34,961 nucleotides of DNA from Smithella sp. Its GTDB lineage: Bacteria; Desulfobacterota; Syntrophia; Syntrophales; Smithellaceae. The stretch is taken from assembly GCA_039679815.1 (NCBI GenBank), contig JBDKUG010000119.1, positions 1 through 34,961 on the forward strand, written 5' to 3'. Of the stretch, positions 7,233-23,408 are shown piece by piece (the stretch's first letter is position 1; every line of letters starts with the position of its first letter). Both the position numbers and the translations under genes were made by a program. A model generated the notes under the pieces. That model searched no databases, was not told where the DNA came from, and worked only from the letters and a program-made list of their open reading frames with translations.

Positions 7233-7326
7233 GGAGAGATGTCTGAGTGGCCGAAGGAGCACGACTGGAAATCGTGTGTATGCCCACAAAGGTGTACCGC
7301 GGGTTCGAATCCCGCTCTCTCCGCCA
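7233..7326 (+). tRNA. tRNA-Ser (anticodon GGA)
   Basis: Acceptor GGAGAGA/TCTCTCC+GCCA, anticodon arm CACGA-CT-GGA-AA-TCGTG, long variable arm and GGTTCGAATCC T-loop. Confidence 0.96.
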
Positions 7327-7335
7327 GAATATGAT

Positions 7336-7363
7336 GCAGAGACGCTGCAAGCAGCGTCTCTGC
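7336..7363. repeat. Perfect palindrome between the two tRNA genes
   Basis: GCAGAGACGCTGC-AA-GCAGCGTCTCTGC (13-bp arms), with no U-tract. Confidence 0.7.
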
Positions 7364-7382
7364 TGTGTTACAGCAAAAATCC

Positions 7383-7476
7383 GGAGAGGTACCGAAGTGG
7401 TCGTAACGGGATCGACTCGAAATCGATTTGGGGGCCACAAGCTCCCACGGGGGTTCGAATCCCCCTCTCTCCGCCA
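7383..7476 (+). tRNA. tRNA-Ser (anticodon CGA)
   Basis: Acceptor GGAGAGG/TCTCTCC+GCCA, anticodon arm ATCGA-CT-CGA-AA-TCGAT, long variable arm and GGTTCGAATCC. Confidence 0.96.
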
Positions 7477-7610
7477 GATTTCAATGCAAAGGCAGACGAC
7501 TCCTGCGGCCGGTGTTTTCATTACCGGATTCCATGATCCAGCAAAAATTTGGGTTGATTCCTGTCGATTTATCCATTAAGAGTTTCTGCGTGACAGTCAT
7601 TATGGGAATA

Positions 7611-7707
7611 TGGCCGGGTCCCGTACAACGAAGGCTTGTGAACCCCGTCAGGTCCGGAAGGAAGCAGCGGCAGCAAATCCCGTCGTGTGTTGCGGTAAAC
7701 CCGGTCA
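7611..7707 (+). ncRNA. ffs: Signal recognition particle 4.5S RNA
   Basis: Conserved domain IV GTCAGGTCCGGAAGGAAGCAGC, closing stem TGGCCGGGT/ACCCGGTCA, located upstream of dnaX. Confidence 0.93.
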
Positions 7708-7764
7708 CCAGTATATAAATGATAAAATTCCGTGGCTTCTAAAAATCAGTGAATTGAGGTTTCA

Positions 7765-15333: not shown

Positions 15334-15819
15334 ATGACAAAAGCCAATGATATCGTGGTGAAAACAAAACAAATCGTCAAAAAGCACAAGGGCGATAAAA
15401 GCGCGCTCATTGCCGTACTTCAGGAGATGCAGGAAGTTTTCAATTATCTTCCGAAGGAAGGATTAAAGGCGGCGGCCAAAGCGATGAATGTGCCCTTTAC
15501 CCGCATGTATGAAGCGGCCACATTTTACACTGCCTTCAGTTTGAAGCCGCGCGGCAAGAATGTGGTCAAAATCTGCAAAGGAACAGCCTGTCATGTCCGC
15601 GGCGCGTCCGCCCTACAGGACAAGTTCGAACGGACATTGTGCATCAAACCTGGTGAAACGACTGCCGATGGAATGTTTTCGCTTGAGACCGTGAACTGTG
15701 TGGGTGCCTGTGCGCTGGGCCCCGTTGTGGTTATCAACACCGACTATCACGGTCAGGTGACCATGAACAAGGTAGATAAAATCATCAAGAAGATCAATGA
15801 AGAGGGGGCGCAGCAATGA
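15334..15819 (+). CDS. NuoE/HydC-like [2Fe-2S] subunit
   Basis: [24 protein letters not shown] and [11 protein letters not shown] motifs. Confidence 0.92.
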
Positions 15820-17660
15820 ACGATAATCCCGACACTCAAGCCCGCCAGATTATGGAAAAGTTGACCATCTACTATGGTCCGAAGAAAAAATTTGTGGCGA
15901 TTTGCGCCGGCACCGGATGCCGTGCTTCCGGCAGCTTCAAGGTCAAAGAAGCGTTCGAGGCCGAATTTAAAAAACAAAACATGGACGTGGATGTGCTGGC
16001 TACCGGCTGTTTGGGGTTCTGTGAAAAAGGGCCCATGGTCATCGTTCATCCCGACAAGTATTTTTATCAGCATGTAAAAGTTGAAGATGTCCCGGAAATC
16101 GTTTCCAAAACCATAGCCAACGGTGAAGTGATCAGCCGTCTGCTCTACCGTCATCCGGAAACGAAAAAAACCCTGTTTCGGGAAGAAGACCTGCCCTTTT
16201 ACAAGAAGCAGCACCGAGTGGTTTTCGGCCAAAACGGCATGATCGATCCGGGACGCATTGAAGATTATTTTGCCATCGATGGATATCAGGCACTGGCTAA
16301 AGTTCTCACCGAGATGACCCCGGAAGATGTCATCAGCGAAGTGAAGAAGGCCGGTCTTCGGGGCCGGGGAGGAGGCGGATTTCCCGCTGCCATAAAGTGG
16401 GAAGGAGTACGTAAAGCAGAAGGTTCTCCCAAATATGTCATCGCCAACGGCGATGAGGGCGATCCCGGGGCCTATATGGACCGAAGCCTTATGGAAGGCA
16501 ATCCCCACAGCGTCATTGAAGGCATGATCATCGGCGCTTACGCCGTAGGTGCGCATGACGGCTACATTTACGTGAGAAACGAATACCCTCTGGCGGTGGA
16601 GCACCTGACAAAGGCTATTGAAGTTGCACGGGAAGCGGGTCTTCTGGGCAAAAACATTTTAGGTTCGGGATTTGCTTTTGATATTCATATTAACAAAGGC
16701 GCGGGAGCATTTGTCTGCGGTGAGTCCTCTGCGCTGTTCGCTTCAATCGAAGGCCGCGCCGGCGAGCCGCGAGCTAAATACGTACACGCGGTGGAAAAAG
16801 GTCTGTGGGACAAACCCACCGTCCTCAACAACGTGGAAACCTGGGCCAATGTGCCGCTGATCATTAATAAAGGCGCGGACTGGTATGCTTCGATCGGAAC
16901 GGAAGGCTCCAAAGGAACGAAAATCTTTTCACTGGTCGGCAAGATCAACAACACGGGTCTTGTTGAAGTTCCGATGGGCACCACACTCTATGAAATTATC
17001 TACGACGTAGGCGGCGGCATTGCCAATGGCCGCAAATTCAAGGCCGTGCAGACCGGCGGTCCTTCCGGTGGCTGCATACCGGAGAGCCTGCTGGATATTC
17101 CCGTTGATTTTGATAAGCTCACCGAAATCGGATCCATGATGGGTTCCGGCGGTATGATTGTCATGGACGACAAATCCTGCATGGTCGATGTCGCCAAATA
17201 TTTTCTTGCCTTCCTGCAGGAGGAATCCTGTGGCAAGTGTGTTCCCTGCCGCGAAGGCGTTCGCCGCATGCATGATATTCTTGAAGATATCTGCGCGGGC
17301 AAAGGCAGGGAAGGAGATGTTGAAATTCTGGAAACCATGTCCCGGGCGATAGCCGACGGTTCCCTCTGTGCACTGGGCGGTTCAGCCCCGAATCCGGTTA
17401 TGAGCACGATTAAATATTTCCGGGAGGAGTATGATGCGCATATCAAAGAGCACCGCTGTCCGGCGGGTGTCTGCAAAGCGCTCATCACTTACAGCATCGA
17501 TCCGGTAAAGTGCACCGGCTGCGGTTTATGCATCAAGGTCTGCCCTGTCGAGGCGGCCTCCGGTGAAAAGAAGAAAGCTCACAGCATCGATAATGACAAG
17601 TGCACACGTTGCGGAGCCTGTATAGAAAGCTGCAAATTTGACGCAATCAATGTGAAATAA
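15816..17660 (+). CDS. NuoF/HydB (BfuB)-like FMN/NADH-binding Fe-S subunit
   Basis: N-terminal [2Fe-2S] (CAGTGC...GCLGFC), [52 protein letters not shown] and a C-terminal 2x[4Fe-4S] domain. Confidence 0.94.
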
Positions 17661-17674
17661 AGGTAGGATAAACC

Positions 17675-18388
17675 ATGGTAAATATGATTATTGACGGAAA
17701 AAATGTGTCGGCGAAGAAAGGCACAATGCTTCTGGAAGCCATCCGTGGCGCCGGCATTTCGGTTCCCACCCTTTGCGCGCATGAAGCCGTGACCCGGTCA
17801 GGCGCCTGCAGGCTGTGCGTGGTGGAAATCAGGAAAGGCAACCGGACACGGATTGTCACCTCCTGCCTCTATGGCGTGGAAGACGGCTTGGTGATTGATA
17901 CGAGAAGTGACCGCGTCCTTAATGTTCGCAGGCTGGTCATGGAATTGCTGCTGGCGCGTTGCCCCGAATCCGAACTGCTGCAAAAGATGGCCAAAGAGAT
18001 GGGTGTGGAAACCCAACCGCGCTATGTCGCCGATACGGATAAAGGCAAGTGCATCTTGTGCCGTTCCTGTGTGCGCGTGTGTGAAGAAGTCGTAGGCGTA
18101 AGCGCAATCGGGCTTTTTTCCCGCGGTTCTTTCAAGACCGTAGGTACACCGTACAACGAAAAGTCGGATGTCTGCATCGGCTGCGGAGCCTGTGTATACG
18201 TCTGCCCCACCGGTCATATCGAAATGACATCGACAGGCGACAAACGCAAAATCTGGGGTCGCACCTTTAAAATGCAGACCTGCGAAAAATGCGGTAAATT
18301 CTTCGCCCCCGTGGATCAGTTGAAGTTCATCAGCAAAAAAACCGGTGTTCCCTACAAAGAATTGACCACCTGCACGGAATGCCGCTGA
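17675..18388 (+). CDS. Short NuoG/HydA N-terminus-like Fe-S protein (no H-cluster or Mo-pterin domain)
   Basis: PTLC...GACRLC...TSC [2Fe-2S], CILCRSCVRVC and CIGCGACVYVCP [4Fe-4S], and C-terminal CEKC...CTEC. Only 237 aa. Confidence 0.9.
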   Translation: MVNMIIDGKNVSAKKGTMLLEAIRGAGISVPTLCAHEAVTRSGACRLCVVEIRKGNRTRIVTSCLYGVEDGLVIDTRSDRVLNVRRLVMELLLARCPESELLQKMAKEMGVETQPRYVADTDKGKCILCRSCVRVCEEVVGVSAIGLFSRGSFKTVGTPYNEKSDVCIGCGACVYVCPTGHIEMTSTGDKRKIWGRTFKMQTCEKCGKFFAPVDQLKFISKKTGVPYKELTTCTECR

Positions 18389-18404: not shown

Positions 18405-18435
18405 AAAAAACCCGGCCGTCAAAGCCGGGTTTTTT
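18405..18435 (+). terminator. Rho-independent terminator (bidirectional-looking)
   Basis: AAAAAACCCGGC-CGTCAAA-GCCGGGTTTTTT immediately after the oxidoreductase operon. Confidence 0.85.
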
Positions 18436-18541
18436 ATTCCGGATAAACCAACAGAGAGATTTACTTTAGGGGTACTCAAGGCAATATTCAGGGTTATAAA
18501 CCGGTGCCAGCCGAATAATAGAAACACCTCTCTTTAAATCC

Positions 18542-18570
18542 TTGAAACATCAGAACACTTTTGATACGCT
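18542..18570 (+). promoter_or_regulatory. Putative sigma70 promoter of the aspS-gatC/gatA/gatB operon
   Basis: TTGAAA-17 nt-TACGCT. Confidence 0.45.
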
Positions 18571-18636
18571 TCGCGGCACAAATTTGTTGAAAATACAGGT
18601 TTGTGCTTAATGGTTTGCAAAGAAAGGACTTTTCAC

Positions 18637-20757
18637 ATGAGTTTTTCCCAACGGATCTTTTGCGGACAGGTGACGCCGGATGATGTCGGACGCAGCGTGC
18701 AGCTTTGCGGCTGGGTGGATGCTTACCGGGATCACGGCGGTCTGTTGTTTATTCACCTGCGCGACCGCAGCGGCATCATGCAGATTGTTTTCAGTCCGGA
18801 AATCGCCTCAGCCGATCTGTGCCGGAAGGCTGCCTCTCTTCGCACGGAATATTGCATTTCCATTGTCGGTGATGTCAAAAAACGCCTCGCGGGCACGGAA
18901 AACCCCAACATCGAGACAGGAAATATTGAAGTCATGGTCACCCAATTGACCGTGCTTTCCGAATCCGACGCGCTGCCCTTTGCCGTTTCCGACAAGGCCA
19001 TGGTCGCAGGCTCGTCAACAGCGGGTGCTGACAATGTGGCCGAGGATTTGAGGCTCCAGTACCGATACCTGGACATCCGCCGTCCGCAGATGCGCGACAA
19101 TCTCATGGCCCGTCACCGTATTTTTCAGTGCGTTCGCGAATTTCTCGATTCAAGGGGTTTCGTGGAAATTGAAACGCCGGTCCTGACGGCAAGCACACCG
19201 GAAGGAGCTCGCGATTACCTTGTGCCCAGCCGGGTCCATCCGCAGAATTTTTATGCCCTGCCGCAGTCGCCGCAGCTTTTCAAACAGCTGTTGATGATCG
19301 GCGGAATGGAACGTTATTTCCAGCTGGCGCGCTGCTTCCGCGATGAAGATTTGCGGCCCAACCGGCAGCCGGAGTTTACCCAGCTTGATCTTGAAGCTTC
19401 GTTCATCGACGAAGAATTTCTCTACGAGCTGATTGAAGAACTGACCGTAAAGATGTTCGCGGTTGGCGGCATTGATCTTTCCCGCCCTTTCCCCCGCATG
19501 ACCTATGCGGAGGCAATGAATACGACCGGTTCCGACCGTCCCGACCTGCGCTTCGGTCTGCGCTTTGTCGATGTGACGGATGTGTTTTCAAAAACCAATT
19601 ATTCAATTTTCCGCCAGATCCTTCAGCGTGGCGGGTGCATCAAGGGCATCAACATCAGGGGCCAGTCCGAAAAACTCAGCAAGAACGTCCTGCAGAATGA
19701 ATACGCCAGGGAGATCGTGCCGTCGTTTGGAGCAAGGGGCATGACCTGGATGCGCGCCGAAGGCGGTAAACTGGAATCCAATATTGTACAGTTTTTCAGT
19801 AGTGAGGAGCTGGAAGCGCTGTGGAAAAAATTCAATGTGGCCGACGGGGATGTTCTGATTATGATTGCCGACTCCTCATACAGCGTCGTTACGTCCGCAC
19901 TTGGTCAGCTACGTCTGCATCTGGCGAATCGCCTGGAGCTCATTGACGAAAACTGTTTTTATCCGGTCTGGATCACGGAATTTCCGCTGTTTGAACCTAC
20001 GGATGAGGGGGGTGTTACCTCCAGCCACCATCCGTTTACCGCGCCGGATCGTGTTGATTTTGATCCGAAAAATATTGAAGAGTTGCTCTCGCTTCATTCT
20101 CTCGCTTACGATCTGGTGATGAACGGCGAGGAGCTGGGAGGCGGAAGTATCCGCATCAACAACCGCGATGTTCAGCGTAAAATATTTGCCGCGCTGGGGC
20201 TCAATGAAGAAGAAATGAGGGAAAAATTCGGATTTTTCCTGCGGGCTTTTGATTTTGGCGCGCCGCCGCACGGCGGTCTCGCCCTCGGGATGGACCGCAC
20301 GGTGTCGATGATCCTGCGGACCCCATCTATCCGGGACGTCATTGCCTTTCCCAAAAACCGCAGCGCAAGCTGTCCCCTGACCGGTGCGCCCTCCGCGGTG
20401 AAGCGCGGACAACTGGCCGAACTGGGGCTTTTAAATCTGGGCGGTCAGGATGTCCTGCCCGGAACCGCCGAAAAGGAAAACAAGGTCGATCATTTGTCCT
20501 GGGTCTCGCGCATCGGTATTGCCGCCCATGAACGCCCCGTTATCGAAGAAATTATTGCCGAGGCGGAGGAACTGGCTTTGATCGCCTTCCAGAAGGCAGG
20601 CAAAGAAGAACCGATGTTTACCGTCGCCCCTGTTTCAAACCGCACACGGCCCGGTACAGAAGAAAAACGATCGGCGCTTGCGCAAAAAGGTCAGCTGCTC
20701 AAAAGCGCGCCTTCGGTAAAGGGGAATTACTTTAAAGTCGCCAGCATTCTGGAATAA
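18637..20757 (+). CDS. aspS: Non-discriminating aspartyl-tRNA(Asp/Asn) synthetase with C-terminal GatC-like fusion
   Basis: RDHGG (His typical of non-discriminating enzymes), LPQSPQLFKQLLM, FRDEDLRPNRQPEFTQLDLE and PPHGGLALGMDR motifs, plus an extra ~95-aa GatC-like tail. ATG 18637 has an AGGA SD. Confidence 0.93.
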   Translation: MSFSQRIFCGQVTPDDVGRSVQLCGWVDAYRDHGGLLFIHLRDRSGIMQIVFSPEIASADLCRKAASLRTEYCISIVGDVKKRLAGTENPNIETGNIEVMVTQLTVLSESDALPFAVSDKAMVAGSSTAGADNVAEDLRLQYRYLDIRRPQMRDNLMARHRIFQCVREFLDSRGFVEIETPVLTASTPEGARDYLVPSRVHPQNFYALPQSPQLFKQLLMIGGMERYFQLARCFRDEDLRPNRQPEFTQLDLEASFIDEEFLYELIEELTVKMFAVGGIDLSRPFPRMTYAEAMNTTGSDRPDLRFGLRFVDVTDVFSKTNYSIFRQILQRGGCIKGINIRGQSEKLSKNVLQNEYAREIVPSFGARGMTWMRAEGGKLESNIVQFFSSEELEALWKKFNVADGDVLIMIADSSYSVVTSALGQLRLHLANRLELIDENCFYPVWITEFPLFEPTDEGGVTSSHHPFTAPDRVDFDPKNIEELLSLHSLAYDLVMNGEELGGGSIRINNRDVQRKIFAALGLNEEEMREKFGFFLRAFDFGAPPHGGLALGMDRTVSMILRTPSIRDVIAFPKNRSASCPLTGAPSAVKRGQLAELGLLNLGGQDVLPGTAEKENKVDHLSWVSRIGIAAHERPVIEEIIAEAEELALIAFQKAGKEEPMFTVAPVSNRTRPGTEEKRSALAQKGQLLKSAPSVKGNYFKVASILE

Positions 20758-20772
20758 CAGGGAGACAGTTCT

Positions 20773-21972
20773 ATGGATTCTATTTTTGTTTATCTCAATC
20801 CCGAAACAGCGTCCGAAGGGAGCGGTCCTCTGCAGGGTTTGAAAATTGCGATTCAGCCCAACATATCCGCATCAGGCTGGCCAACGGACGCCGGCTCCAA
20901 CGCCCTCATCAATTTTAAAGCGCTCGAAGACGCAACGCTGGTGAACAGGCTCCGTGAGGGGGGAGCCGTGATTCAAGGTTTAACCCACATGAGTGAATTC
21001 GGTTTTGGTCTAGCGGGAAGCAGAGCCGGGGATGCCGTCAGGCGCGGCGCCGTGGATGCTGAACTGGTTTTAGACCTGATGGGGGAAAGCCGCCTGGCTG
21101 CCCAGCGCACCTCCGTTTGCGGTTTCAAGCCCAGCTACGGTCTGATATCCCGCTATGGTCTCATCGGTCTGATTCCATCGATGGAATGCTGTGGCGTTCT
21201 TTCCCGCAGTCTGAAAAATATCCGGGAGGTGGTGAAGATCATAGCCGGTCCGGATGAAAGGGATTTTGCGCTTCCCGATGAAAAGCCGCTGGACTTTTCC
21301 CCGCAAAAAATGAATCCGGAAAAAACAACCGTTGGTGTGATCACCGAAACGAAAAGCGGACTGCAAGGTGATCAGGAAGGCGCTTTTCATGCCGCTATCG
21401 ATGAGCTGAAAGAAACGGGTTTCCGCATCAAAGAAATGTCTTTTCCCGATTTTTCTCTTTTTTCACTGGTCCATAAAATCGTGGGTTCCGTCGAGGCGTC
21501 CTCCTGCGCCGGGCGCTACGATTCGGTACGCTATGGTCATCGTGTGCTGGGCGCAAAAAACTGGAACGAAATGTACCTGTCCTCGCGCGAAGAGTCCTTT
21601 GGCCTGCTTGTGAAAAGCTATCTGTTTCAGGGCGCGTTTTTCCAGTTTCAGCGCTACGACGCCTATGAAGACGCCTGCCGTATCCGCGCGAGGCTGCACG
21701 CGGATATGCAGAAAACCATTTCGAAGGTGGATTTCCTGGTTCTCCCGGCTGCAAACGAAGTTCCAACAAACACAACGGCTTCGCTTGCCGGCACATACGA
21801 ACAATTTTCCCCGACGGTTTTTGCCAATGTGACCGGCCAGCCCGCGCTGTACCTGCCGCCTGAGTCCGGCCAGGAGCGATTCGGGTTTCAGCTTTCCGGG
21901 CCGAGGCTCAGCGACGCGCGGCTTTTCGCGCTGGGCGAGCATCTTCTGAATCTGCGCCAGGGAGGTAAATAG
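20773..21972 (+). CDS. gatA: Divergent, truncated GatA (amidase fold), catalytic residues apparently lost
   Basis: GFKPSYGLISRYGL, EASSCAGRYDSVRYG and FANVTGQPA match GatA. The amidase signature is degenerate. Located between aspS-gatC and gatB. Confidence 0.82.
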   Translation: MDSIFVYLNPETASEGSGPLQGLKIAIQPNISASGWPTDAGSNALINFKALEDATLVNRLREGGAVIQGLTHMSEFGFGLAGSRAGDAVRRGAVDAELVLDLMGESRLAAQRTSVCGFKPSYGLISRYGLIGLIPSMECCGVLSRSLKNIREVVKIIAGPDERDFALPDEKPLDFSPQKMNPEKTTVGVITETKSGLQGDQEGAFHAAIDELKETGFRIKEMSFPDFSLFSLVHKIVGSVEASSCAGRYDSVRYGHRVLGAKNWNEMYLSSREESFGLLVKSYLFQGAFFQFQRYDAYEDACRIRARLHADMQKTISKVDFLVLPAANEVPTNTTASLAGTYEQFSPTVFANVTGQPALYLPPESGQERFGFQLSGPRLSDARLFALGEHLLNLRQGGK

Positions 21973-21974
21973 TG

Positions 21975-23408
21975 ATGGAATTTGAAGCGGTCATCGGACT
22001 GGAAATCCATGTTGAACTCAATTGCAAAACAAAATTATTCTGCGATTGCCCCAATAATCCCGGCGACGAACCGAACATCAACACCTGTCCTGTCTGCCTG
22101 TGGTTCCCGGGCGCCGTCCCCCGCTTGAGCCAGGAGGCGTTGGAAAAGGCAGCGATTTTATGCCTGGCACTGGGCGCCGAGCTCCAGCCAAAAAGCGCTT
22201 TTGACCAGAAGGTCTATTATTATCCGGATCTGCCGAAAGGCTACCAGTTGTCCCAGGCCCATCTTCCGCTTTCCCGGGGCGGCGGCATTGATATTACGGA
22301 CGAAGACGGCACAACGAAAAGACTGCGCATTCATCACATCCACATGGAGGAAGATGTCGCCAAGCTGGTGCATGAAATGGAGGGGCGTGTGCCGATCAGT
22401 CTGGTGGATTTCAACCGTGCCGGCTCGCCGCTGGTGGAAATTGTCACAGAGCCGGATTTTCGCACGCCATATCAGGCAATGGAATTTTTAAAGGCGCTGC
22501 GGACACAGGTTCGCTACGCGGGCTCCTCCGAGTGCAGCATGGAAAATGGCACCATGCGCGTCGATGCCAATATTTCCATTCGTCCGAAAGGCACCGGACA
22601 GATGAATACCAAGGTGGAAGTTAAAAACATGAATTCTGTCCGTCATGTGGGCGATGCCATTGCGCATGAAATCACCCGCCAGAGCGCATGTGTCCAGGCG
22701 AATGAAGCCGTGGTACTGCATACCCGTTTGTGGGACCCGGATAAAAAAGTCACCCTGCCGATGCGGGCCAAGTTTGAAGGCCCGTGCGTTCCCGATCCGA
22801 CGGTGCCGGCAATCGAGTTGTCGGCGCAGGAGATCGAACTTCTGCGCTCGCGGCTTCCGGAAATGCCCGCCGCAAGGGCCAAGCGCTTTGTTTTACAGCA
22901 TGGCCTGACCGGTGAAGAAGCAGCCTTTTTGAGCACCGATCCTGAGGTTGCGGGTTATTTTGAAGCGCTACTTACAGAAGGGATCGCGCCCCGCACCGCC
23001 ATGCACTGGCTTACCACGCAGCTTATTCCGGCTGTCAGGGACCGCGGCCAGGAACTGGGCACAACGCCTGTGACCCCGGCCCGCTTCGCCGTGCTGCTGA
23101 AAATGCTGTCCAATGACGAAATCAACGCCAACGCAGCCCGCGAAGTGCTGTTCCATCTGTTTGACTCTGACCAAGCGCCGGAATCCATTGTACATGCTAA
23201 GGGTTTTAAGCAGGTTTCCGACCGCGCTGAACTTGATTCGCTTATCGACAGGGTTTTGGGTGAACAGCCGTCGGCAGTCAATGATTTCCGTGCCGGCCAA
23301 AGCAAAGCCATGGGCTTTCTGATCGGCCAGGTCATGCAGGCCTCCGGCGGGAAAGCCAATCCGAAAATCATCCGTGAACTGCTGGCAAAAAAACTGGGAA
23401 AGATTTAA
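21975..23408 (+). CDS. gatB: Asp-tRNA(Asn)/Glu-tRNA(Gln) amidotransferase subunit B
   Basis: VIGLEIHVEL..KTKLFC, YPDLPKGYQ, HMEED, DFNRAG.PLVEIVTEPD and VEVKNMNS motifs, plus a YqeY-like tail. Start is ATG 21975 or GTG 21972. Confidence 0.94.
   Translation: MEFEAVIGLEIHVELNCKTKLFCDCPNNPGDEPNINTCPVCLWFPGAVPRLSQEALEKAAILCLALGAELQPKSAFDQKVYYYPDLPKGYQLSQAHLPLSRGGGIDITDEDGTTKRLRIHHIHMEEDVAKLVHEMEGRVPISLVDFNRAGSPLVEIVTEPDFRTPYQAMEFLKALRTQVRYAGSSECSMENGTMRVDANISIRPKGTGQMNTKVEVKNMNSVRHVGDAIAHEITRQSACVQANEAVVLHTRLWDPDKKVTLPMRAKFEGPCVPDPTVPAIELSAQEIELLRSRLPEMPAARAKRFVLQHGLTGEEAAFLSTDPEVAGYFEALLTEGIAPRTAMHWLTTQLIPAVRDRGQELGTTPVTPARFAVLLKMLSNDEINANAAREVLFHLFDSDQAPESIVHAKGFKQVSDRAELDSLIDRVLGEQPSAVNDFRAGQSKAMGFLIGQVMQASGGKANPKIIRELLAKKLGKI

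Follow-up and report, generated by a model that had tools for sequence, protein, structure and literature searches.

Organization of the cassette

The indirect route to Asn-tRNA is generally pictured as one in which the partners meet only transiently on the tRNA and in which the nitrogen is drawn from glutamine. This work concerns a three-gene cassette in a Smithella sp. genome (assembly GCA_039679815.1, contig JBDKUG010000119.1; the window is the whole stretch of DNA analysed, 34,961 nucleotides of the forward strand) in which components of that route appear in altered form, namely an aspartyl-tRNA synthetase (AspRS) that ends in a GatC-like tail, a GatA-like protein (GatA') and a GatB paralogue (GatB'). 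The three open reading frames occupy positions 18637-23408 on one strand (Table 1), with a gap of 15 nt between the fusion and the GatA-like gene and a 1-nt overlap at the GatA-like/GatB-like junction. An original prediction, made by a model from the letters of this DNA, had described three tightly spaced genes with no free gatC among them; the spacing agrees with the first statement, and the second holds for the cassette operon but not for the genome, which has a canonical gatC elsewhere (G000:C62:1151-1426) adjoining canonical gatA and gatB.

Table 1. Features of the cassette and of the region upstream of it (window positions)
Feature	Position	Strand	Basis or remarks
AspRS-GatC fusion	18637..20757	+	706 aa; family models, invariant class II motifs, dN/dS
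GatC-like tail of the fusion, residues 616-706	20482..20754	+	Pfam GatC, hhalign, complex model, dN/dS
GatA-like putative pseudo-glutaminase (GatA')	20773..21972	+	399 aa; family models, AlphaFold2 (AF2), Foldseek, dN/dS
GatB paralogue (GatB')	21972..23408	+	478 aa; start GTG 21972 or ATG 21975
Terminator-like hairpin and T-run	18410..18437	+	by eye: ACCCGGC-cgtcaaa-GCCGGGT, then TTTTTTATT
Promoter-like TTGAAA (18542-18547), 17-nt spacer, TACGCT (18565-18570)	18542..18570	+	upstream-region comparison
Two ACAAATTTGT-like arms (GCACAAATTTGT ... ACAGGTTTGTGC), 7 nt apart	18576..18606	+	upstream alignment; operator-like or 5'-hairpin element
Ribosome-binding site AGAAAGGAC	18621..18629	+	7 nt before ATG 18637; conserved upstream

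The AspRS-GatC fusion

The fusion passes the cut-offs of the bacterial-type AspRS models (TIGR00459, 694.3 against 373.85; NF001750, 758.2 against 443), and its Pfam domains are tRNA_anti-codon, tRNA-synt_2 and GAD (the last with E 4.5e-17). Its layout comprises an OB anticodon-binding domain at residues 21-107, a class II core at 136-575 that carries a GAD insertion at 325-420, and a linker at about 599-615. The QSPQ and class II motifs define the active site of AspRS, and since QSPQ, FRDEDLR, HHPFT and GGLALGMDR are invariant across 56 fusions, the AspRS core is intact. Taken end to end, residues 1-706 match positions 18-723 of the curated model NF009460 (PRK12820), the 'bifunctional aspartyl-tRNA synthetase/Asp/Glu-tRNA amidotransferase subunit C', with 1341.1 bits (1348.8 in a six-frame search). 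This is 38 bits below the curated cut-off of 1379, a value reached in none of 41 related genomes, and we have treated the fusion as the same architecture lying just below the equivalog line.

With regard to tRNA specificity, we take the P. aeruginosa residues H31 and G83 to mark the two anticodon-domain positions that separate non-discriminating from discriminating bacterial AspRS. In the fusion these positions fall in RDHGG and LAG, and so read His and Gly, as compared with RDHGG and PEG in 4wj3_M and RDLGS and DEK in E. coli 1c0a. The His/Gly signature is also found in the P. aeruginosa and mycobacterial non-discriminating enzymes and is shared by the genome's own canonical AspRS, whereas the first position is Leu in the discriminating enzymes of E. 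coli and T. thermophilus. By this comparison the fusion carries the non-discriminating signature. By sequence alone its last ~90 residues are only weakly GatC-like, and they align co-terminally with the genome's own GatC (...SAPSVKGNYFKVASILE against ...NAPDARGEFFRVPKVIE).

The GatA-like subunit

GatA' scores 230 bits with the gatA model TIGR00132 (cut-off 481.1), of which positions 1-51 and 122-144 find no match. Its AF2 model (pLDDT 88.7, pTM 0.90) has GatA chains as its nine best Foldseek matches, with template modelling (TM) scores of 0.83-0.89 and 3kfu_E as the best at 0.89; against 4wj3_A the score is 0.87, and the names given by the ESM Atlas go no further than 'amidase / GatA family'. 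The active site was mapped by a HMMER alignment to the S. aureus GatA, in which K79 is presumably the catalytic Lys, S154 the cis-Ser and R358 the Arg of the Gln-binding VKRRI motif. In GatA' the catalytic K79 aligns with Gln28, the nucleophile S178 with Glu105 and the Arg of VKRRI with Tyr283, while D425 is lost in a 3-residue deletion and S154 is aligned with Ser83. In the excerpted literature, S178 is the nucleophile of a Ser-cisSer-Lys triad (PMC2330236), and D425 and Y310 lie in the Gln-bound site (PMC2811023). The substitutions are a property of the family, for among 81 members the Lys column holds Gln in 80 and Gly in one, and the nucleophile column holds Glu in all 81; over 62 members Glu105 never varies, and conservation at Gln28, Ser83 and Tyr283 is at least 90%.

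Judged from this alignment, GatA' cannot hydrolyse glutamine by the amidase-family mechanism, because the Lys, the nucleophile and the residues that hold glutamine are gone. This is in keeping with the original prediction of a glutaminase-dead GatA, as no Ser-cisSer-Lys mechanism would be possible without Lys and the nucleophile Ser. The further description of the subunit as triad-less is accurate for those two residues and not for the third, which is probably retained as Ser83. In the first MAFFT alignments the cis-Ser had appeared to be deleted, a loss made improbable by the HMMER alignment and by the family consensus G-S-x-A-G; a deletion of 21-23 residues ends just before Ser83.

The GatB paralogue

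GatB' exceeds the GatB cut-offs (NF004012, 554.4 against 338; TIGR00133, 474.8 against 314.8), has the Pfam domains GatB_N and GatB_Yqey with the cradle, helical and YqeY-like tail regions all present, and aligns with the Aquifex GatB 3h0l_B over residues 3-473 (E 5e-121). All 32 cassette GatBs compared have His13, Glu126/127 and Glu156, and excerpts of two papers describe the homologous His/Glu/Glu residues as metal-binding in the GatB kinase pocket (PMC4027206, PMC2330236). A 3-10 turn of GatB has been reported to read the U1-A72 pair (PMC2811023, likewise excerpted); over the corresponding bacterial stretch, GatB' and 3h0l_B show no length difference in a sequence alignment. The subunit had been called divergent at the outset, and this is true of its identity to the genome's own GatB (37%) and of the 23 altered columns discussed below, although by every family model it is a full-length GatB.

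A modelled complex

A complex was modelled from GatA', residues 1-300 of GatB' and residues 606-706 of the fusion, together with three controls. The model reached an ipSAE of 0.92, compared with 0.51 for the best control, and the mark set for this score is attained by 58 of 80 solved complexes and by 2 of 110 mismatched pairs. The agreement in contacts among the three runs is at least 94%, and the partner pLDDT is at least 86. In the model, residues 616-706 of the tail contact both GatA' and GatB', including GatB' 268-282, the stretch in which the DYRYF motif is replaced. The model supports the view that the tail may bind GatA' and GatB' as GatC does, and with it the earlier proposal that the synthetase is tethered to the amidotransferase through GatC, with the proviso that structural likeness to known complexes may contribute to the score.

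The canonical system of the host

The host genome (stated to be 91% complete with 4.7% contamination) carries the canonical genes gatC, gatA and gatB side by side on contig C62 (94, 634 and 634 bits, all above cut-off) and a canonical aspS on contig C379 (799 bits, above cut-off). No asnS, asnA or asnB scored above cut-off in this genome, which has one tRNA-Asn (U1-A72) and one tRNA-Asp (G1-C72). The cassette is an accessory second system beside canonical aspS and gatCAB. This is what the original prediction had suspected in calling it a second, specialised copy, and the genome search that it proposed has accordingly turned up a second aspS and a canonical gatCAB, with no asnS above cut-off.

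The sole glnS of this genome (G000:C165:658-2232, minus strand; 784 bits, above cut-off) contains an in-frame TGA after ...TYDPATLNGPPAD, beyond which the frame runs for 108 aa. The TGA may be a sequencing error, the mark of a pseudogene or a site of recoding; if GlnRS were dead, the canonical GatCAB would also have to make Gln-tRNA.

Conservation and spread

Fusions were found in 8 of the 41 related genomes, all 8 of which also have a canonical aspS, and the gene order is kept in each of 7 relatives that were fetched. A search with the tail gave hits to fusions in 78 of 339 genomes within the order, spread over 27 of 72 genera, and in 10 of 401 sampled from the phylum. A profile scan for the GatA-like subunit, at one genome per species, gave 230 relatives, of which the best 80 were analysed as loci. 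The titles of these 80 include Smithella, Smithellaceae, Syntrophus, Desulfobacteraceae and Desulfatiglans, and extend to Dehalococcoidia, Pirellulaceae and Thermoguttaceae (Planctomycetota), Acidobacteriota, Verrucomicrobiota, Lentisphaerae, Actinomycetota, Myxococcales and Competibacteraceae. The reading frames are intact in all 80. In every locus where the contig extends far enough (76 of 76 on either side, with 4 cut by contig ends) GatA' is immediately preceded by the fusion, whose core and tail share one frame, and immediately followed by GatB'; the co-occurrence of fusion and dead GatA, which had been put forward as a point to survey, is thus complete among the loci that reach upstream. 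The protein database has 812 clusters at E <= 1e-60, and no name among them goes beyond 'amidase family protein', 'hypothetical' or 'GatA'.

Ratios of non-synonymous to synonymous substitution (dN/dS), computed against four relatives, were 0.05-0.08 for the fusion (core 0.04-0.07, tail 0.13-0.18), 0.09-0.13 for GatB' and 0.17-0.26 for GatA'. All three genes are under purifying selection, GatA' least tightly. Conservation of the architecture in relatives, on which the original prediction had staked itself, is therefore found across phyla and with dN/dS values of 0.05-0.26.

A quick maximum-likelihood tree built from 26 cassette GatBs and the canonical GatBs of their hosts (24 sequences, after omission of one partial and one second copy, and with one host lacking a canonical copy) places all the cassette GatBs in a separate clade on a branch of 2.07 (SH-aLRT 100) with a shallow crown. 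The median identity of cassette GatBs is 77.5% between phyla and 79.1% within them, as against 46.0% and 65.2% for the canonical GatBs of the same hosts. That cassette GatBs should be so much more alike across phyla than their canonical counterparts points to horizontal spread, and the sequences fit a recent transfer of the cassette across phyla. There is no conserved neighbour among the 80 loci: the genes that flank the cassette in the window recur in at most 3 (the upstream genes for proteins of 614 aa and 237 aa in 3), and the most frequent cluster at the flanks, which by eye resembles PurC, is found in 7.

A dedicated tRNA was likewise absent, in that neither tRNA-Asn nor tRNA-Asp was found in the 60 of the 80 loci that were scanned, where 9 assorted tRNA genes are distributed over 8 loci, and the window itself has only two tRNA-Ser genes. 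In five loci a canonical aspS directly adjoins the cassette, for example at positions 9018-10790 of L039 (G001:C2), and this may reflect either a site of duplication or a site of insertion. One Pirellulaceae locus (L065:3612-4967; G732:C266) carries a full asnS of 631 bits on the same strand, 439 nt downstream of GatB', and is the only asparagine-related neighbour of the cassette that was seen. Four sequencing runs labelled 'RNA? (probably DNA)' contain contigs of relatives about 90% identical across the stretch, from which no conclusion on expression is drawn.

Proposed function and its alternatives

At a probability of about 0.45, we favour the reading that the cassette encodes a hard-wired, glutamine-independent Asn-transamidosome that would use free ammonium and operate beside the AspRS and GatCAB of the host. 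As GatA' should be able neither to split nor to hold glutamine, the nitrogen would have to come from elsewhere, and most simply from free ammonium. There is a precedent in the excerpts of PMC4027206, according to which 20 mM NH4Cl supports transamidation by the yeast GatFAB, at a higher rate in a variant with impaired glutaminase. Within this proposal the assembly of tail, GatA' and GatB' is modelled, and we infer tRNA-Asn as the substrate, ammonium as the donor and insulation from the host GatCAB.

In such a scheme the AspRS part would place aspartate on the tRNA-Asn of the host, and the GatC-like tail would clamp a private GatA'/GatB' pair onto the synthetase such that the mischarged tRNA never leaves; with a dimeric AspRS the particle would be (fusion)2(GatA')2(GatB')2. 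GatB' would then phosphorylate the side chain of Asp on Asp-tRNA-Asn and amidate it to give Asn-tRNA-Asn, with free ammonium entering through what was the glutaminase pocket, now remodelled, and through the old tunnel, and GatA' would serve as scaffold and entry port. Furthermore, the changed GatB'/GatC interface would keep a dead GatA' from poisoning the host GatCAB, and this insulation may be what lets the cassette work after transfer into unrelated hosts. A connection with ammonium-rich anaerobic habitats is suggested only by record titles and run labels.

Several observations weigh against this proposal. The tail alone scores below the Pfam GatC cut-off (PF02686; E 0.0012, 19.5 bits, cut-off 23), a TIGR00135 search of the genome lists the canonical gatC and not the tail, and hhalign of the tail with the genome's own GatC gives E 0.0012 at a probability of 19%; the complex model may for its part owe some of its score to resemblance with solved GatCAB structures. 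Near-invariance among 24 canonical GatBs extends to 86 columns; GatB' keeps 63 of these and changes 23, and the motif EEAxDYRYFPDPDL has become KFEGP--CVPDP, changes that could alter the chemistry and not the interface alone. The residues that replace the active site of GatA' are themselves conserved (Gln28, Glu105, Tyr283, Trp36 and His234, together with an NWNEMY stretch), and this may point to a new ligand rather than to an empty port. The advantage to be gained is also in question, in that ordinary amidotransferases already use ammonium in vitro (PMC4027206, as excerpted), and a sigma-54-type nitrogen-control motif was found upstream in none of 61 regions under a strict pattern and in 3 of 61 under a loose one.

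Nor is the need for the cassette evident. In a survey of 25 hosts from different phyla, a canonical GatA was above cut-off in 24 (the 25th is cut by a contig end), two or more GatBs were present in 24, AsnRS in 11 and an AsnB-family enzyme in 13. The cassette is invariably supplementary, and its carriers include hosts that do not depend on the tRNA route; the presence of AsnRS and AsnB-family enzymes in carriers argues that it is not simply filling in for a missing route to asparagine.

It is conceivable, by analogy with extra aminoacyl-tRNA synthetase copies that confer resistance, that the chemistry is the same and that the value of the cassette lies in robustness, as a back-up transamidosome that would be insensitive to inhibitors of AspRS or of the GatA glutaminase (glutamine analogues or GatA-mimicking toxins, for instance) and would have spread in the manner of those copies. 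The cassette is indeed always accessory to a canonical set, its distribution is patchy (the 78 of 339 genomes in the order and the 10 of 401 in the phylum draw), it combines a cross-phylum GatB identity of 77.5% (46.0% for the canonical gene) with the lack of a conserved neighbour, and a GatA-like toxin, Tse8, is described in an excerpt as targeting the transamidosome (bioRxiv 10.1101/733030). However, no biosynthetic, immunity or toxin gene is linked to it in any of the 80 loci, where the commonest flanking cluster reaches 7, and we know of no inhibitor of the pathway from these habitats. We regard this explanation as unlikely.

Two further interpretations bear on the donor and on the chemistry, neither of which we would back with much conviction. 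In the first, Asn-tRNA-Asn would be made with nitrogen from another donor, either a small amide or amine bound in the pocket or a separate glutaminase, in place of bulk ammonium. The conserved replacements speak for it (Glu105 invariant, with Gln28, Tyr283, Ser83, Trp36, His234 and NWNEMY), as does a dN/dS of GatA' well below 1 (0.17-0.26); on the other side, no fourth gene is conserved with the cassette and the amidase-type nucleophile is gone, and we hold this version to be quite unlikely. At similarly long odds, the pocket may have been rebuilt, and not just emptied, to take a nitrogen source or nucleophile without known precedent among tRNA-dependent amidotransferases, in which event the cassette would represent a new nitrogen feed into translation or the source of a non-standard aminoacyl-tRNA.

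In the second interpretation the chemistry or its use would differ altogether, with a nucleophile other than ammonia attacking the activated Asp, or with the aminoacyl-tRNA feeding a non-ribosomal process. Such a function would accommodate the 23 of 86 changed GatB columns, the loss of DYRYF and the occurrence of the cassette in hosts that have AsnRS and AsnB-family genes. It sits poorly, however, with the retention of the GatB metal ligands and the whole domain set, with the lack of any linked tRNA-Asn, tRNA-Asp or recurrent tRNA (9 assorted genes in 8 of 60 loci) and of a conserved transferase or biosynthetic neighbour, and with the same-strand asnS 439 nt downstream in the Pirellulaceae locus, which points to asparagine; we give it little credence. 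Finally, it is very improbable that the cassette is a duplicate in decay, or that it acts without catalysis as a regulator of, or sponge for, tRNA-Asn, given that, although GatA' has lost its active site and evolves 2-4 times faster than its partners, dN/dS is well below 1 for all three genes, the frames are intact in all 80 loci, the gene order is identical across phyla and the catalytic motifs of AspRS and GatB are invariant.

Relation to known systems

Among the closest counterparts of the ammonium-fed, glutamine-independent transamidosome proposed here is the bacterial Asn-transamidosome of non-discriminating AspRS, GatCAB and tRNA-Asn (T. thermophilus 3KFU, P. aeruginosa 4WJ3, H. pylori), with which it has all four protein modules, and presumably the two-step route, in common. 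The known particles are non-covalent, held together by the tRNA and dynamic (PMC3367201, excerpted), whereas in the cassette GatC is within the synthetase polypeptide; they also have an active GatA, whereas in GatA' the Lys is missing, as are the nucleophile Ser and the residues that bind Gln. The fusion architecture is already on record in annotation as NF009460, a model that names the fusion alone and is silent on the dead GatA partner, the private GatB and the mobility of the cassette.

In Thermus and Deinococcus, AspRS2 is an extra non-discriminating AspRS that stands beside the housekeeping enzyme and works with the amidotransferase in tRNA-dependent asparagine synthesis. The AspRS of the cassette is like it in being an additional, apparently non-discriminating enzyme partnered with an amidotransferase; AspRS2 is of archaeal type, unfused, and shares the single GatCAB of its host, whereas the cassette enzyme is of bacterial type, fused to GatC and supplied with its own GatA' and GatB'. 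A second AspRS is alluded to in an excerpt of PMC4206432. The yeast mitochondrial GatFAB, as excerpted in PMC4027206, resembles the cassette in having a GatC-like module inside a larger polypeptide, and in that system NH4Cl can replace glutamine and a weakened glutaminase raised NH4Cl-dependent transamidation; it differs in that GatF is not a synthetase and its GatA is catalytically active. The Tse8 toxin (bioRxiv 10.1101/733030) and AtzE-AtzG (PDB 6c62), in the portions of these sources that were available, are further cases of GatA-type amidase-signature proteins reused with or against GatC/GatB partners, but they act outside tRNA amidation or block it, and they are not encoded with an AspRS and GatB of their own.

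A full-text literature search (subscription journals and supplements being outside its scope) found no paper on the AspRS-GatC fusion, on an inactive GatA partner or on mobility. The term 'aspS-gatC' occurred only in an artificial aspS-gatCAB operon (PMC4206432, excerpted), and outlier gatB sequences have been noted in some deltaproteobacteria with no fusion (PMC3927822). The original prediction had named prior characterisation in the literature as something that would undo it; within that scope no such paper was found. It had not anticipated that the fusion has a curated model, that the cassette is horizontally mobile across phyla, or that AsnRS and AsnB-family enzymes are present in some carriers.

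The cassette would thus present a synthetase welded to its amidotransferase, with the glutaminase switched off and the whole packaged as a three-gene unit, in hosts that keep the ordinary enzymes, and its movement appears to span eight or more bacterial phyla from anoxic habitats. It also illustrates how a pseudo-enzyme subunit can be kept under selection. If free ammonium is indeed the donor, this would be the first tRNA-dependent amidotransferase in nature that needs no glutamine; it would also offer structural work a stable transamidosome ready to use, and synthetic biology a portable, host-insulated module for decoding asparagine. The question is directly testable, since one carrier, Syntrophus buswellii DM-2 (NZ_CP175563.1, locus L070), is cultured and has a complete genome.

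The upstream control region

The gene upstream of the cassette stops at 18388 and is ended by the terminator-like hairpin of Table 1, which was read by eye and is absent from the listing of the consensus scan. The start of the fusion is placed at 18637 and not at TTG 18601, because AGAAAGGAC sits 7 nt before ATG 18637, and the motif aGAAAGGAc is kept before the ATG across 61 aligned upstream regions. With the hairpin and T-run ending the upstream gene and the conserved AGAAAGGAC fixing the start, the cassette would constitute its own transcription unit.

Similarity between upstream regions was found in 270 of 1830 pairs of loci, peaking at -100 to -40. The element at 18542-18606, which combines TTGAAA-N17-TACGCT with the ACAAATTTGT-like arms, accompanies the cassette in many Syntrophales and in some Dehalococcoidia loci. 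It looks like a promoter with an operator, a putative assignment made by resemblance, and the promoter-like part (18542-18570) was not listed by the consensus scan. An RNA hairpin at 18576-18606 finds no support in covariation, as pair counts do not differ from those of shuffled alignments (pairing in 78.0% of cells compared with 75.9%, with 41 of 500 shuffles equally high); RNAalifold likewise predicted no structure for the leader arms. Further paired ACAWWWWTGT sites were not found in the genome, by a pattern that also misses the window's own second arm, and Rfam at the gathering threshold has no element near the cassette.

Other genes of the host and window

Some minor features of the genome deserve mention. 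ARAGORN reports a 79-nt tRNA-like gene at G000:C96:586-664, whose anticodon ('gtaa') has four bases and which carries a G1-C72 pair and a discriminator A. The genome has two tRNA-Sec genes (G000:C62:6276-6373 and G000:C64:270-365), one of them ~1.8 kb downstream of canonical gatCAB, and the pair is either a real duplication or the result of bin contamination. Within the window, two tRNA-Ser genes (gga and cga) and a small signal recognition particle (SRP) RNA lie in a row at 7233-7709. Immediately upstream of the cassette, at 15816-18388, are the genes for the 614-aa protein and for the 237-aa protein, the latter Cys-rich; by eye these look like a NuoF/HydB-type flavoprotein and a 2Fe-2S/4Fe-4S subunit of a hydrogenase or formate dehydrogenase module.

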